A DNA stretch of 64,000 nucleotides from Eubacteriales bacterium (GTDB taxonomy: Bacteria; Bacillota; Clostridia; Oscillospirales; CAG-272). The stretch's first letter is position 1. Each line of letters begins with the position of its first letter. This document shows positions 37,358-63,227 of this stretch, one piece after another. The translations under genes and the position numbers were made by a program. The notes below the pieces were generated by a model. That model made no database searches. It saw only the letters and a program-made list of their open reading frames with translations, and had not been told where the DNA came from. The DNA lies in the NCBI GenBank assembly GCA_045659905.1, contig JAZRCT010000012.1, positions 47,538 through 111,537 of the forward strand, read 5' to 3'.

Positions 37358-37437
37358 ATCCCGACGAAGTCGGATTTCATCACGAAGTGATTTCACCCAA
37401 CAAAGTTGGATATATCCCGTCCTTAAGGGCGGATTTA
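37358..37437. repeat. Cluster of four short REP-like hairpins
   Basis: ATC-CCGAC-GAA-GTCGG-ATTTC / ATCAC-GAA-GTGATTTC / CCAAC-AAA-GTTGGAT / ATCCCGTCC-TTAA-GGGCGGATTT. Confidence 0.6.
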
Positions 37438-37441
37438 ATTG

Positions 37442-37484
37442 AAAAAAGCACACATTGTCTTGGTAGACAAATGTGTGCTTTTTT
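37442..37484 (-). terminator. Terminator after tRNA pair
   Basis: AAAAAAGCACACATTGTCT...AGACAAATGTGTGCTTTTTT. Confidence 0.8.
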
Positions 37485-37485
37485 C

Positions 37486-37563
37486 TGGGGTGAGATAAGG
37501 GACTTGAACCCTCGACCTCCAGGGCCACAACCTGGCGCTACTGCCAACTGAGCTAATCCCACC
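37486..37563 (-). tRNA. tRNA-His(GTG)
   Basis: Cloverleaf by hand: G-1, GTGGGAT/ATCTCAC acceptor, CCAGG-TTGTGGC-CCTGG anticodon arm, GGTTCAAGTCC, encoded CCA; D-stem has one extra base. Confidence 0.93.
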
Positions 37564-37568
37564 GTATA

Positions 37569-37645
37569 TGGCGCGTCTTGAGGGACTCGAACCCCCGACC
37601 TACTGCTTAGAAGGCAGTTGCTCTATCCAGCTGAGCTAAAGACGC
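37569..37645 (-). tRNA. tRNA-Arg(TCT)
   Basis: GCGTCTT/AAGACGC acceptor, ACTGC-CTTCTAA-GCAGT anticodon arm, GGTTCGAGTCC, CCA. Confidence 0.96.
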
Positions 37646-59290: not shown

Positions 59291-59632
59291 GCCCAAAAAG
59301 GGCAGGGGACTTCCCTGTTGATTTTCATTAACATTTACTACTATATTATAATATATCATTTTATATTTTTCAAGTATTCTATGAATTTAAGAAGCTAAAT
59401 TTATTGAGTATAATCTGTACAGCCAATAAAGCTTACATTCGGTAAATTTGAATTTTAATAAAGTAAGCTTATACGTGTGATTTGAGTTAATAATATATAA
59501 ACGCCTAAAATTATCACGAAAAAATTTAATTAGCAGTAATATAGGTATTAAGCCGAGCGAAAAATCCGTTATTAAGTAAAACCTAGATAAAATCAAAAAA
59601 AGCCTTATATAAAGGCTTTTATAATCACCTAA

Positions 59633-59672
59633 ATTATACAAAATATCGATTTTGTATAATTGGATTGTGTTT
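59633..59672. repeat. attL: palindromic dif-like site plus 26-bp direct repeat
   Basis: ATTATACAAAA-TATCGA-TTTTGTATAAT (11-6-11); CGATTTTGTATAATTGGATTGTGTTT at 59647-59672 is identical to 62624-62649. Confidence 0.85.
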
Positions 59673-59949
59673 GCTACCCTCTCTAGCTTCCTTTCTTTTT
59701 CGTGTGTAAAGCTTATCATAAACAGATTCCTTTTTCAAGCAAAATCCTTGCTTTGAGCAATTTTCGCAAAGTTCTCGCGTAAAGGAAAAAAGCAATTTTT
59801 GCAATGTCTTTCTAGCTCCGCAATCTCGGTTCAATTGCGGTAATTGTACACAGCTCCCTCCTCTGTTGTCGATTTTATCGCACTTGTCTAGGTTCACTTC
59901 GTTCTCCACCAAGACAAGCGCAATCGCCAACAAATAAAAGGAGTCCGCT

Positions 59950-60246
59950 ATGAACAATTCCCACAATCGTCCCTTCGATTACTTCCTCGCAGAAATCCAA
60001 AATTATGTCGATATTCTTCGCTCAATCTACGAGCTTCGGGAAATCCGCAACGAGCCTTATTCTTTGCAATTCTGCCTCGGGCAAATTGATGCGCTCAATT
60101 ATGTCTTGCGCCTCGGTGCAAGAATTTTCAATCAACGGCTCGGCGTAGAGCTTCCCGATGCTCGTGAAATGAGCTTCAATGAATATCAAGCAATCACCGC
60201 CGAGCAAGATGCGCTCTACAAAAGCATTAAAAAAAGGGGTTGCTAA
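59950..60246 (+). CDS. Orphan 98-aa protein of the element
   Basis: AAGGAG RBS, ATG, hairpin AAAAAAGGGGT/ACCCCTTTTTT at 60230-60259 overlapping the stop. Confidence 0.75.
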   Translation: MNNSHNRPFDYFLAEIQNYVDILRSIYELREIRNEPYSLQFCLGQIDALNYVLRLGARIFNQRLGVELPDAREMSFNEYQAITAEQDALYKSIKKRGC

Positions 60247-60305: not shown

Positions 60306-60399
60306 GGCTCGCTCGCTTTGTGAAGCTCAACTCGCAATCGGGGGTTCCGCCCCCCTACGCCGGCTGGGGCGGTCTTGTCCGCCCCCGTCCCCACGCTTT
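60306..60399. repeat. 94-bp GC-rich direct repeat, copy 1
   Basis: 90/94 identical by eye to 61826-61919. Confidence 0.95.
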
Positions 60400-61006
60400 A
60401 TTTCTTCGTGCCTTTCTTTTTGCTTTCGTTTGGCATTTTGTAATTGTTTCCCAGAGCTTCGAGCACCATTCGCACTATAAGCCTTAAATCTCTCCTTGTA
60501 AGCGGTTTTTCGGCGTTTTCCCCTGTATCCCAGTCGGCAAAGCTGTAAATTTCGGTCGTTGCGGAATTGTTGTGTTGCAGCGCTTGCTTGACCTCCTCAA
60601 AGCCTTTTTTGCGGTAAAGCTCTACGGCAAACGCCTTCCGCATAGCGTGAGGTGACACCCCTTCGAGGTCAAGGCCCGCACGCTTCCCGGCTTTCTTGAT
60701 TCTCGCCCATACCGCCTGTCGAGTTAGGTGCTTGTCTTCTGCCTTGTATGACGGAAAAAGATATTTTCCTTGTTTTGCACTTAAAGCTTTTCTCAGGCTT
60801 TGAGATATTGGAGCGACTCCCCTTTTTCCGGTTTTTTCGGCTGTGTAGTGTAGTCCATCTTTTTTCAAATCCTTACGCTGAAGCTTGACGGTATCCCCTA
60901 CCCTTAGCCCAGTCTCAAGGCTTACCCAGAGCGGAAGCCACTGCTCAGCTGTTAATGAGACTTTGAGCTTCGTTATTTCCTCGGGTGACAGATACTTACT
61001 TTTCAT
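60398..61006 (-). CDS. Tyrosine recombinase, catalytic domain only
   Basis: R35 (TGLRVGD), K58, H120-x-x-R123, H145, Y154; 202 aa, no N-terminal core-binding domain. Confidence 0.92.
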   Translation of the reverse strand: MKSKYLSPEEITKLKVSLTAEQWLPLWVSLETGLRVGDTVKLQRKDLKKDGLHYTAEKTGKRGVAPISQSLRKALSAKQGKYLFPSYKAEDKHLTRQAVWARIKKAGKRAGLDLEGVSPHAMRKAFAVELYRKKGFEEVKQALQHNNSATTEIYSFADWDTGENAEKPLTRRDLRLIVRMVLEALGNNYKMPNESKKKGTKK

Positions 61007-61036: not shown

Positions 61037-61729
61037 TCACTGCGTGACTTTTGATTTTTCTGCCTCTGCGATTTTGCCACGAGCTTCGGCTCTTGCTCTT
61101 GCAAGCTCAAGCTTTCCCAAGCGCTCGGCGCTCTTTTGGTCGGCGTAGCGCCGACTTGTTAGATAGGTGTTGAATAAGCACACATTATTCTTTGCGACGT
61201 CCCACTCGTCACCGTATCCGTTGTCCTCTAGGAAGTCCAGAAGTCCAGAAAACTCCGTTATTTCAGCTTCACGGATTATTGCAAAGGTGCGCTTTATAGC
61301 TTCGTTGACCTCACCCCTTGTCAATTCCACAAACTCGGCCAGACAAAATCCGTTGAGGTGTTCGATAAGACTCTCGTCGTATTGAGCTTTTTCGGGGTTA
61401 TCCTTATGCGAGAAATAATTGTACATTCCTCGGATGCTTTTTAAATCCTTTGGAATAGGCGTGTGCAGCTCGTCTTGGACGAACTTCCTTGCGTTGTTGT
61501 AGGTGGTGGGTCCGTCCCAGCATAGGATAATATGCCAATGAGGTTTTTTTGGCTCCCCTGTCGGGTTGATATCCTTATCGTGATAAGGGGATATTGCACA
61601 GCGCAATCCGCTGATTTTGATAATGTCCCGCCAATCCTCCGGCGCTGAATCCTCGTAGACGATAGCTGTCCAGAACTTGGACTTAACCTCTTTTTCTTTT
61701 TCCTTTTTCTCTTGTTTTTTCGTTTCCAT
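61037..61729 (-). CDS. Rolling-circle replication initiator, Rep_2 / pMV158 RepB family
   Basis: ISPYHDKD, KKPHWHIIL (HUH), YNYFSH...KAQY; ATG at 61729 with AAGGAG RBS. Confidence 0.93.
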   Translation of the reverse strand: METKKQEKKEKEKEVKSKFWTAIVYEDSAPEDWRDIIKISGLRCAISPYHDKDINPTGEPKKPHWHIILCWDGPTTYNNARKFVQDELHTPIPKDLKSIRGMYNYFSHKDNPEKAQYDESLIEHLNGFCLAEFVELTRGEVNEAIKRTFAIIREAEITEFSGLLDFLEDNGYGDEWDVAKNNVCLFNTYLTSRRYADQKSAERLGKLELARARAEARGKIAEAEKSKVTQ

Positions 61730-61766
61730 TTTTGCTCCTTTTTTCACTTGTCATAAGTCACTCTTA

Positions 61767-61794
61767 GGGGGAATGTGTCGTAGTACATTCCCCC
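61767..61794 (-). other. Double-strand origin (nic hairpin), pMV158 family
   Basis: Stem GGGGGAATGT/ACATTCCCCC; minus strand reads TACTACGAC, the pMV158-family nick consensus. Confidence 0.9.
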
Positions 61795-61825
61795 CCGCCC
61801 TTTTCGAGCTACGAAAAAGAAAAAA

Positions 61826-61919
61826 GGCTCGCTCGCTTTGTGAAGCTCAACTCGCAATCGGGGGTTCCGTCCCCCTCCGTCGGCTGGGGCGGTCTTGTCC
61901 GCCCCCGTCCCCCCGCTTT
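61826..61919. repeat. 94-bp GC-rich direct repeat, copy 2
   Basis: Matches 60306-60399 at offset 1520. Confidence 0.95.
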
Positions 61920-61992
61920 TTTCGCTCTCTGTGCCTCGTTCACCGCTTCCCTAGTGTTGTTGCACCTCTGAGCTTTAAATGTAAGACCAAGG

Positions 61993-62180
61993 GGGCGCAG
62001 GCGGTTTTCACCTCACCTCGTGAAGCTCAGCTTGCGACCTGCGTCCGCAACCCTCGCTCTCTCGGAGTATCCCCCCACTGCGCCCGGGGGTGAAGCTCTG
62101 CGGAGCTTTTCGCACTGCGGTGCAAGGTTAGCCCCCTCCCGTCCCCCGTGGGGGAAGCGTGGCTCGAGAGTATCCGAGGC
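61993..62180. other. Branched GC-rich hairpin region, candidate single-strand origin
   Basis: GGCGCAGG/CCTGCGTC, CTCGGA/TCCGAG, TCCCCCCAC/GTGGGGGA, AAGCTC-TGCG-GAGCTT, GCAC-TGCG-GTGC. Confidence 0.5.
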
Positions 62181-62206
62181 TTCCTCTGTCCTTGCTTTGG
62201 CAAAAT

Positions 62207-62398
62207 AAAAAAGCTCCCGAAGATGCAAGAAGTGAAGAGCATCTATGAGAGCTTATGCGATATAACCCAGTCGCGCGCAAGTTCCGCCATCGCAAGCGGT
62301 AGGCATGGGCTTCGGCAGTCCGTACACGAAAGACAGCTCAACGGTAAACTCCTTTCGCATTAACCGAAGGCGACTGGTGACGGTTACTCCGTCGCCAC
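62207..62398 (-). ncRNA. Candidate ~190-nt structured RNA
   Basis: Lies between a consensus promoter (62405-62433) and an intrinsic terminator (62207-62254); multiple nested helices. Confidence 0.6.
62243..62341 (-). CDS. Possible 32-aa Cys-rich peptide
   Basis: GAAAGGAG RBS, 7 nt spacer, TTG start; MSCLSCTDCRSPCLPLAMAELARDWVISHKLS. Confidence 0.35.
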   Translation of the reverse strand: MSCLSCTDCRSPCLPLAMAELARDWVISHKLS

Positions 62399-62404
62399 GA
62401 TTAA

Positions 62405-62433
62405 ATCATAGCACAGCTGCGGAGCTTTGTCAA
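62405..62433 (-). promoter_or_regulatory. sigma-A promoter inside the element
   Basis: TTGACA-17-TATGAT with extended TG. Confidence 0.8.
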
Positions 62434-62623
62434 GGCGAAAATGAAAAATTTCTTCTTTTTGCTTGAAAAAGCTTTGTTCTGCCCTCCGCCCCCACAATCC
62501 AATTAACCGGTGCTACCTTACAAAATTAATTTTGTTGTATGGTTGCTTTGGCAACTATGCTTCTGCCCCTCCCGCTTTAGATGCAATCGTTGCTCACTAC
62601 CGAAAGCAGTCATACAAAAAATG

Positions 62624-62649
62624 CGATTTTGTATAATTGGATTGTGTTT
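62624..62649. repeat. attR 26-bp direct repeat
   Basis: Identical to 59647-59672. Confidence 0.9.
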
Positions 62650-62804
62650 TCTAGCTTGTCTGCCCTATAATACGCCTTATGACAAATTCATTAAATTTGT
62701 TCCTTTAAGCGCTTTCAATTTAATTAAAAATAAATTGGAATATACTTGAAATATCGCCCCATATATGATATAATGTATACAACATATTTATGGAGGATAT
62801 TCAA

Positions 62805-63227
62805 ATGAGAATCAGAGTACTTACTTATACTTCAAAGGGAAAGCTTCTTGCAATCGCAGATGAGGTAACAAAGCTTCTTGATGCAGACAAAGCAACCGAC
62901 GTAATTCCCCCCGCATATCCCTGCGATGGCGAAAGACTTGTCGTAATCGTAGCTTCGGCTAAGAATTCTTATCCCGAAAGCGTACAGAGAACTCTCCGCT
63001 CTTTCAAGAGAAGCGTTACTCACAACGTAGCATTTATCATTGACGGTACAGAAGAGAGCGCAAAATCTATCGTAGAAATGGCAAAGACCAACGATTCGCA
63101 CGTTATAGAGGACAAGATTCTTTATATCAAGGGCGGTCTTCCCTTCAAGTTTATGAAGAAGGTTTCTGCCGAAGAAATGGCAGCCGTTAACGAATGGGTT
63201 AAGGAAGTTAAGGCAGCAATGGTTTAA
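62805..63227 (+). CDS. Flavodoxin-like fold hypothetical protein
   Basis: YTSKGK...IAD, alpha/beta pattern, terminal ..W.K; GGAGG RBS; TTGAAA-17-TATAAT at 62746-62774. Confidence 0.65.
   Translation: MRIRVLTYTSKGKLLAIADEVTKLLDADKATDVIPPAYPCDGERLVVIVASAKNSYPESVQRTLRSFKRSVTHNVAFIIDGTEESAKSIVEMAKTNDSHVIEDKILYIKGGLPFKFMKKVSAEEMAAVNEWVKEVKAAMV

Follow-up and report, generated by a model that had tools for sequence, protein, structure and literature searches.

A conserved hairpin at the right junction of a dif-integrated rolling-circle plasmid: a candidate attachment site in folded, single-stranded form

The window analysed here (the whole stretch of 64 000 nt, from a contig of a Eubacteriales bacterium) contains an integrated element of 2,977 bp, which carries two genes on the − strand between its terminal repeats, one for a pMV158-type replication initiator (Rep) and one for a 202-aa tyrosine recombinase, and which is present once in the 1.77-Mb genome. 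At the right end of this element lies an imperfect hairpin of 154 nt. We lean towards reading this hairpin as the attachment site (attP) of a small integrative rolling-circle plasmid in single-stranded, folded form. The reading draws on the fold itself and its covariation among related elements, on the structure of the junctions at the host dif site and on the company that the recombinase keeps with rolling-circle replicons.

The hairpin and its relatives

Five parts make up the hairpin: the outer stem, a branch formed by the mini-hairpin, the inner stem of the arm, a small bubble at the spacer and a variable stem-loop. Its features are as follows.

62493–62646, no strand assigned: imperfect hairpin of 154 nt (candidate folded attP) at the right end of the element; the DNA folds, and the architecture is also present in 23 other elements
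62493–62505, + strand: inverted copy of the flank and outer arm, CACAATCC followed by AATTA; exact reverse complement of 62634–62646
62506–62518, + strand: mini-hairpin (GGT/ACC stem) splitting the inverted arm copy and forming a three-way junction; same position in 24 of 24 elements
62519–62525, + strand: TACAAAA, the inner 7 nt of the inverted arm copy; pairs with TTTTGTA at 62627–62633
62526–62607, + strand: spacer-side bubble and variable terminal stem-loop; 37–128 nt among the elements, with pairing kept
62608–62619, + strand: degenerate left arm of attP/attR, AGTCATACAAAA; 10 of 12 positions match the dif left arm
62620–62626, + strand: element-type 7-nt spacer AATGCGA; its last 3 nt (CGA) are common with the host spacer
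62627–62638, + strand: right arm TTTTGTATAATT at attR; identical to the dif arm

Folding was performed with DNA parameters and compared with 200 dinucleotide-preserving shuffles per strand. The + strand folded with −32.2 kcal/mol (shuffles −13.15 ± 2.69, z = −7.08) and the − strand with −31.6 kcal/mol (shuffles −14.44 ± 2.63, z = −6.52); none of the 200 shuffles was as good on either strand. The original prediction had described the hairpin as formed by an inverted copy of the attachment site, and its individual pairings were recovered: CACAATCCAATTA (62493–62505) is the exact reverse complement of TAATTGGATTGTG (62634–62646), TACAAAAT (62519–62526) pairs with ATTTTGTA (62626–62633), and both the GGT/ACC mini-hairpin of the 13-nt insert ACCGGTGCTACCT (62506–62518) and the inner GCAAC/GTTGC stem are present in the minimum free energy (MFE) structure. 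The inner imperfect arms (62519–62549 and 62603–62633) are 77% complementary. On either strand, the crossover arm finds its partner in an inverted copy of the dif arm together with its flank. The resulting dif-like duplex has a 12-bp arm extended by at least 2 bp of flank, then a small spacer region without pairing, and beyond it a second stem that varies. At 7 nt from the spacer the GC hairpin interrupts the inverted copy, and the arm becomes continuous only upon folding. This large bulge within an arm had been located correctly but had been counted as a weakness of the folded reading; it is not one, since it forms a conserved GC mini-hairpin.

Homologs of the recombinase numbered 658 at E ≤ 0.001, mostly on contigs of 2.6–3.4 kb, and the loci of 40 from species genomes and 80 from metagenomes were fetched. 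In integrated copies a complete dif lies downstream of the recombinase gene, with an isolated arm 2.4–4.4 kb upstream; many short contigs have terminal overlaps, corresponding to free circles of 2.5–3.4 kb, and carry a lone arm. Hairpins were anchored by sequence only, as AATTA (at most one mismatch), 7–60 nt, TACAAAA, 15–220 nt and the 12-nt arm (at most one mismatch). This gave 41 candidates, of which 29 had an insert G+C content of at least 55%, 26 were unique and 24 were kept; left out were the 12 under 55% G+C (not individually inspected), three duplicates, one locus with masked N (L033) and one containing the host dif only (L048). The 23 of the 120 fetched loci that have the architecture are a lower bound, as many contigs are fragments and arms vary in other hosts.

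The 24 non-redundant elements (window included) share the order 5′ flank, AATTA, GC mini-hairpin, TACAAAA, variable part, TTTTGTATAATT, 3′ flank. The insert is placed between AATTA and TACAAAA without exception, each one folding as a small hairpin that starts 2–4 nt past AATTA. The three-way shape was obtained in 23 of the 24 MFE folds; L043 misfolds, and its close relative L035 does not. TACAAAA is invariant in all 24 by selection of the set and is paired in every fold except that of L043.

Covariation was tested by swapping partners among the elements with composition kept. The flanks beyond the arm formed 3.42 contiguous bp with their own partners and 1.12 bp with swapped ones, and the mini-hairpin stems 3.88 and 2.28 bp, respectively; in both tests none of 10000 permutations reached the value for own partners. 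The inner stems gave a duplex energy of −12.7 kcal/mol against −6.6 kcal/mol when swapped (0 of 2000 permutations). Pairs were also counted over the outer and arm helices in a MAFFT alignment of the 24 segments, which gave 84.9% paired cells (shuffled 76.0%, 0 of 500) and a covariation score of 0.211 (shuffled 0.075, 0 of 500; slid partners 0.04–0.08). The two flank pairs adjoining the arm are GC in 11, CG in 10 and UA in one element (pair 7–244) and CG in 20, UA in two and GC in one. The close pairs L014/L016, L019/L062 and L035/L043 are among the 24, and these counts therefore overstate the independent events; several different pair types recur despite the kinship. As a rule the inner stem looks like the inner dif left arm (ACAAAA/TTTTGT), and it is kept as a structure where this resemblance has been lost (L018, L020, L054). 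The inverted copy, the bulge position and compensatory changes in the flanks, bulge stem and inner stem are thus retained among homologs, as had been anticipated.

In the Rep_1 group (L104, L107, L108) and in the plasmid pRGI00836 the two halves occur in reversed order, with the GC mini-hairpin directly 5′ of xACAAAA. In L145 (pRGF00147), whose Rep is related and whose recombinase is 37% identical, no ACAAAA...TTTTGT site was found; the dif of its host is probably a different one. L032 contains two copies of the hairpin ~6 kb apart with a full dif between them and several extra arms; the contig represents an array, tandem or nested, or else an assembly error.

The dif target and the junctions

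The ends of the integrated element are given by an exact direct repeat of 26 nt (59647–59672 and 62624–62649, spacing 2,977 bp). TAATTGGATTGTG is also found at 59657–59669, as a third, direct copy.

59632–59661, no strand assigned: attL, intact host dif-like palindrome AATTATACAAAA-TATCGA-TTTTGTATAATT; single copy in 28 of the 29 genomes of the order that have it
59647–59672, + strand: left copy of the 26-nt direct repeat; identical to 62624–62649, with the crossover inside the repeat

In a DNA search of 40 relatives the palindrome region of ~35 nt was 85–97% conserved across genera and families, with matches on both strands, and in eight of the 11 relatives' loci that were fetched the site had identical inner arms and a different central 4 nt. 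A census of 121 genomes of the order (at least 90% complete, at most one mismatch) found the site in 29, one of which has it twice, and a reversed-pattern control gave no matches. The position relative to the terminus was assessed in one closed, single-contig genome (G033), where the site lies at 1.146 Mb of ~2.2 Mb, opposite dnaA at 0.3 kb; in G060 it lies at 1.54 Mb of ~3.0 Mb (dnaA not located there). Based on the single copy, the invariant arms, the variable centre and the position opposite dnaA in this closed genome, AATTATACAAAA-N6-TTTTGTATAATT, in the form AATTATACAAAA-TNNNNA-TTTTGTATAATT, is probably the dif of part of this order of uncultured Clostridia. Variant arms occur in other hosts, for example TTTTGTGTAATT and TTTTGTATAGTT. 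The site is a perfect 12-6-12 palindrome, often flanked on one side by TAGGGAAG, and this palindromic form implies a single-recombinase style; the host carries two full-length Xer-like genes, for proteins of 339 and 291 aa. Each arm contains TGTATAAT, which we take to resemble an extended −10 promoter element. The arms are similar in style to the difH arm AGTTATGAAAA given in passages of PMC5357621. A literature search, with supplements outside its reach, found no paper with these arm sequences as dif.

An empty form of the locus, with an uninterrupted order spoIIID–dif–ORF145, was found in four relatives. The open reading frame ORF145 (62790–63227, + strand) encodes 145 aa without a family match and is syntenic with dif and spoIIID in these four relatives (44–72% identity). 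From these sequence comparisons we conclude that the element sits in the host dif and that an intact dif has apparently been regenerated at the left junction, as for integrative mobile elements exploiting Xer (IMEX).

The junctions attL and attR were compared by eye in 12 integrated copies. The 6-nt spacer at attL is always of the host type and attR retains the 7–8-nt spacer of the element. The spacer nucleotides adjoining the right arm are common to both junctions, with at least 3 nt in ten of the 12 copies, 2 nt in L018, none in L017 and 5 nt at most; elsewhere the two spacers disagree. In reactions of tyrosine recombinases, cleavage of each strand falls at the 5′ border of the spacer, and the first 2–3 nt are swapped. 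Spacer homology on the right-arm side therefore points to the − strand of the window, AATTATACAAAA^TCG, as the exchanged strand, and exchange would have taken place at the arm/spacer boundary of the strand nicked by Rep (see below), next to 3 nt of microhomology. The unequal and mostly non-homologous spacers argue against a full two-strand exchange and fit a single exchange resolved by replication, as for CTX. When the product of a single exchange of a − strand circle was traced by hand, it had the observed order of dif, element flank, body, whole hairpin, element spacer and arm.

To the right of attR, in place of the host DNA that would be expected, the sequence equals the element's own left end, always starting from the arm, for 11 nt in the window, 14 nt in L019, 28 nt in L018, 48 nt in L043 and 80 nt in L035; in the six others of the 11 integrated copies compared, the shared stretch is at most 4 nt. 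In the window (62639–62668 against 59662–59690) TCTAGCTT recurs past an 11-nt gap. The shared right flank could possibly be a relic or tandem copy, a product of conversion via junction migration through the identical arm, or captured host DNA.

The junctions fit a reaction of duplex DNA equally well. If attP acts as a duplex only, the interrupted inverted copy would be an accessory or decoy site for the recombinase, serving synapse architecture or directionality, or else a second site that is disabled, and the fold would be irrelevant. The palindromic dif does allow the halves to be read as two tandem dif-like sites, explicitly so in L032, L081 and L108, and VGJ-type IMEX use one strand exchange with partial spacer homology (passages of PMC5357621). 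This alternative is nevertheless quite improbable in our judgement, as duplex DNA has no need for covariation of the mini-hairpin stem and of flank nucleotides 60–190 nt apart, as the inner stem is retained as a structure in the three elements in which its likeness to the arm is lost, and as the only replicons with which the module occurs are rolling-circle ones, from three families.

The recombinase and the dif-like site could also serve the resolution of plasmid multimers in the manner of cer or psi, with insertion into dif as an occasional by-product and with a hairpin unrelated to integration. Small plasmids commonly resolve multimers via Xer-type sites (passages of PMC5357621), and many members of the family were recovered as free circles of 2.5–3.4 kb. 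Against this stand at least 12 integrated copies from different genomes with the same junction structure at dif, and the conserved fold would be left unexplained; we consider this account very improbable.

The rolling-circle replicon, the displaced strand and a possible mechanism

The remaining features of the element on which the argument depends are listed here.

60398–61006, − strand: tyrosine recombinase, 202 aa, Xer-like, catalytic domain only; PF00589, 5.4e-20
61037–61747, − strand: rolling-circle Rep of the pMV158 RepB type; PF01719, 4.8e-38 (origin-binding), and PF21861, 1.2e-08 (C-terminal)
61767–61794, − strand: GC hairpin of the double-strand origin (dso); loop TACTACGAC, the candidate Rep nick site, just upstream of rep
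62405–62433, − strand: strong promoter-like site TTGACA-17-TATGAT with TG, directed toward dso and rep; 11 of 12 consensus positions

The recombinase aligns only with the catalytic C-terminal parts of the XerA, XerD and XerC profiles, and the solved structures nearest to it are Xer proteins (PDB XerC-like entry 4a8e, 2e-11). Its catalytic set (R35, K58, H120, R123, H145 and Y154) is unchanged across 36 homologs. Integron integrase models gave a partial match below threshold (37.5 bits against a cut-off of 265). An AlphaFold model had a pLDDT of 74, with a confident catalytic fold for approximately residues 10–115 and low confidence after ~145, and is therefore silent on the action of the conserved C-terminal 45 residues.

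The nick motif TACTACGAC, which fits the nick site of the pMV158 family, recurs in 17 of 18 related loci, where it is again carried by a covarying GC hairpin ahead of rep on the Rep-sense strand. The location of this hairpin supports the proposal of the original prediction that Rep nicks the − strand; Rep most likely nicks and displaces the − strand of the window, which is also the strand marked as exchanged by the junction microhomology. CTACG in the mini-hairpin loops of L014, L015, L016, L018 and L020 was considered as a Rep nick site and rejected, as it belongs to the strand antisense to rep and the true nick hairpin is the one immediately upstream of that gene.

The window's group, with a RepB-type Rep, comprises 18 loci (tblastn). 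Among other members of the recombinase family, 23 have at the position of Rep a gene of PF23343 (18) or PF01446 (five), both taken as rolling-circle initiator families by their Pfam names; one extra open reading frame was without a match. The recombinase/attachment-site module is thus joined to three unrelated families of rolling-circle Rep, and to no other kind of replicon among those tested. Three plasmids that lack the recombinase (Int-less) and have the nearest Rep (48–50% identity) with the same nick hairpin all lack the dif-arm hairpin, so the hairpin goes with the recombinase rather than with Rep.

These three plasmids also bear on the main rival account, in which the hairpin is a new type of single-strand origin (sso) that is recognized on the displaced − strand by host RNA polymerase or primase, its overlap with attP being accidental or a second job. 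Much about it fits: every element of the family that was tested has a rolling-circle Rep and hence needs an sso, the hairpin is of sso size (ssoA is ~160 nt according to passages of PMC5703833), its orientation relative to rep is fixed in 24 of 24 elements, it lies upstream of dso and so would be displaced late, and the paired arm holds TGTATAAT with its likeness to an extended −10 element. Moreover, the window's group has no other conserved strong fold (61800–62200, − strand, z = −3.2; 62195–62445, − strand, z = −1.5). A hairpin with TTGAC in its stem was found in only six of 26 elements scanned and is absent from the window; as a separate common sso it neither supports nor excludes the sso role. 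We nevertheless hold this account to be unlikely. CS-6 (TAGCGT) was found in one of the 24 hairpins on the Rep-sense strand and in none on the other, and RSB in none of the 24 when scanned with the example sequence from PMC4598088 at up to five mismatches. The conserved letters of the stem coincide exactly with the host dif arm, and one stem strand is the crossover arm itself, neither of which an sso needs; the inner stem usually mimics the inner dif left arm, suggesting recombinase binding; and the Int-less plasmids with the nearest Rep and dso do without the hairpin. The mini-hairpin also splits the −10-like hexamer on the displaced − strand, for which reason the arm was retained as an extended −10 element or single-stranded promoter only within this account. 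The roles of sso and of folded attP could coexist.

A different long hairpin, with a GTCAAGG...CCTTGAC stem, occurs in L106, L112, L142, L055, L068 and L108, with or without a recombinase, and is a candidate sso type of gut plasmids. In L142, which is Int-less, it is the best hairpin and is followed by TAGCGT.

A search of the element against Rfam gave zero families at the gathering score or at E ≤ 1, and an RNA role for the hairpin is unlikely because it lies upstream of the element's main promoter.

If attP is indeed used as folded single-stranded DNA, integration could proceed as follows. Rep would nick the − strand and replication would release it as a circle, which would fold. The continuous strand of the arm would pair with the copy interrupted by the mini-hairpin, placing the three-way junction on the uncut strand. 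A tyrosine recombinase (the element's 202-aa Xer-like protein, a host Xer or both) would cut the continuous strand at AATTATACAAAA^TCG, and the cut strand would be exchanged with the same strand of dif, aided by the 3 nt of microhomology. Replication would then convert the junction and complete the insertion, giving an intact dif at the left and the whole hairpin with the 7–8-nt element spacer at the right, as is observed. Lying 7 bp from the cut, the three-way junction may identify both the folded form and the strand that is to be cleaved, like the extrahelical bases of attC, and, more speculatively, may replace contacts of the missing N-terminal domain.

Several points weigh against the folded single-stranded attP. 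Judged by sequence, the junctions would suit either substrate and do not separate single-stranded from duplex attP; the duplex plasmid also has a perfect arm, a spacer and a weak left arm, and a one-strand duplex reaction of the VGJ type would lead to the same junctions. Rolling-circle plasmids need an sso, and with no other conserved candidate in the window's group the hairpin could serve as one instead or as well. The 24 relatives were chosen by a pattern that fixes the arms, and only the tests of the flanks, mini-hairpin and inner stem are informative. In L020 the arm follows the host variant (TTTTATA) and the inverted copy stays TACAAAA, giving a mismatch, so that the arms may track dif. 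The spacer of the window is nearly all paired (a 1 × 2-nt bubble and a G–T pair), which differs from the open centre of CTX attP(+); many homologs have bubbles of roughly 3 × 3–5 nt. The preference for one strand by folding energy is weak. The original prediction had the + strand favoured, which is true in the window by only 0.6 kcal/mol and thus weaker than had been stated, and the Rep-sense (window −) strand folds better in 16 of the 24 homologous hairpins (Wilcoxon p = 0.0097, sign test 0.15, for related and not independent sequences). The repeat of 11–80 nt to the right of attR in five of 11 copies is not predicted by simple spacer exchange. Finally, the comparison with Int-less plasmids has n = 3, and the hosts of these plasmids are not known.

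A joint reading can be drawn from all of this, which we hold to be possible and somewhat doubtful as a whole: a portable module, consisting of a minimal Xer-like recombinase with the catalytic domain only and of an attP that is complete only as folded single-stranded DNA, would be carried by widespread rolling-circle plasmids of 2.5–3.4 kb in gut and rumen Clostridia and would insert the strand displaced by Rep into the palindromic dif by a single strand exchange, the mini-hairpin 7 bp from the cleavage selecting the strand and the folded form. It would be a third independent class of single-stranded substrates of tyrosine recombinases after attC and CTX attP(+). To our knowledge, integron cassettes and CTX-type phages, both from Proteobacteria, are the only two systems in which a tyrosine recombinase acts on folded single-stranded DNA. 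If the reading is true, integration in single-stranded form would be a general strategy of rolling-circle elements, including the abundant cryptic plasmids of gut Firmicutes. It would be performed by a recombinase of only ~200 residues and would involve a novel structural mark in the form of a three-way junction within the binding arm. The element would then be a very small, well-defined setting in which to study how strands are selected and how recombination proceeds by a single exchange, and parking in dif would explain the persistence of tiny 'cryptic' plasmids.

Other features of the window were noted. The promoter-like site has a counterpart in homologs, with TTGTCAA at a similar place (judged by eye). 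In the region 62205–62433 (− strand) this near-consensus promoter (62433–62405) is followed by ~190 nt rich in tetraloop-like hairpins, ending with a stem and T-run near 62205–62230. A small RNA may be made from this region, or a long leader ahead of dso and rep; it had no Rfam match and its z score as folded single-stranded DNA was only −1.5. A G+C-rich direct repeat of 97 nt within the element (60306–60402 and 61826–61922, 95% identical, with a third partial copy at 62012–62035) contains GC hairpins, its copies lying downstream of the recombinase gene and just upstream of dso; it could represent Rep-binding repeats, terminators or the real sso. ORF98 (59950–60246, + strand, 98 aa) has no Pfam or NCBIfam match and no relative among the 120 related loci, and is probably element-specific cargo outside the module. 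In a search of public sequencing runs, one run contained a fraction of 0.06 of the sampled words. A Gut-1 small RNA (RF01706, 52.1 bits) was found at 37369–37645 (− strand), adjoining tRNA-His and tRNA-Arg.

Comparison with known systems

Neither elements of this kind nor this dif site nor an attachment site with a three-way junction were found described in the published literature, with supplements outside reach. The nearest deposited relatives of the recombinase (33–38% identity) are encoded by the rat-cecum plasmid pRGI00836 and its relatives (HG796380 etc.), which are circles of 2.2–2.7 kb. Like the element, pRGI00836 has a perfect arm and, ~80 nt away, GCAATTA and TACAAAA separated by 38 nt; unlike in the element, the two halves are in reverse order. 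Integrase domains are noted in PMC3913684 on the rat-cecum plasmids, and the words 'hairpin' and 'rolling circle' are absent from the passages of it that were at hand.

The replicon resembles those of the pMV158 family in its Rep_OBD/RepB initiator and in the nick motif, which lies in a hairpin loop upstream of rep on the coding strand. The ssoA and ssoU origins are orientation-dependent hairpins on the displaced strand (passages of PMC5703833). They share with the hairpin described here a length of ~150 nt, a location in a non-coding stretch of a pMV158-type plasmid and a fixed orientation; ssoA is unlike it in that RSB is lacking here and CS-6 present in one of 24, in that the conserved letters are those of the dif arm and in the absence of the hairpin from the nearest Int-less plasmids.

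Actinomycete elements of the pSAM2 type are conjugative, ~11 kb in length and insert a duplex attP into tRNA genes by means of a full-length integrase, without a dif target, and we know of no folded attachment site among them. They are alike in combining a rolling-circle Rep with their own site-specific tyrosine recombinase, and PMC2440964 describes such a rolling-circle replicon integrating via its own recombinase.

Of the known systems, CTX attP(+) and integron attC come nearest in kind to the hairpin, which counts neither as an attC nor as an ssoA. Integron attC sites are imperfect hairpins of variable length with conserved base boxes, a variable terminal structure and extrahelical features, and their recombination is resolved by replication. 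The hairpin of the element has an analogous layout of conserved boxes, variable terminal structure and an extrahelical part. The extrahelical part is, however, a whole GC hairpin here and consists of single bases in attC; the recombinase lacks the N-terminal domain and the IntI-specific insertion (weak partial profile matches); the partner is dif and not attI; and the unit is a replicon and not a cassette, with no attI or cassette array. According to PMC4792948, an Xer-related tyrosine recombinase joins attC, folded from a single strand, to a duplex partner.

IMEX share with the element the insertion at the host dif and the regeneration of dif at one junction; in the strict sense of the term the element differs in encoding a recombinase with an intact catalytic set. 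In CTX attP(+), two inverted dif-like half-sites on one strand form a hairpin of ~150 nt that imitates dif (passages of PMC5357621). The likeness to this site, which had been the core of the original prediction, was upheld as regards the structure and its covariation and is strengthened by the dif target; the recombinase of its own sets the element apart from CTX. The element further differs in being a 3-kb plasmid without phage genes, in having a perfectly palindromic host dif, a conserved mini-hairpin in one arm and, in the window, a small spacer bubble, and in residing in gut Clostridia, whereas CTX resides in Vibrio. In both, inverted dif-like half-sites fold into a dif-like stem, here conserved with covariation; single-stranded DNA is supplied by rolling-circle replication; dif is the target and is regenerated at one junction; and only one side of the spacer shows homology, in keeping with a single exchange that replication resolves.

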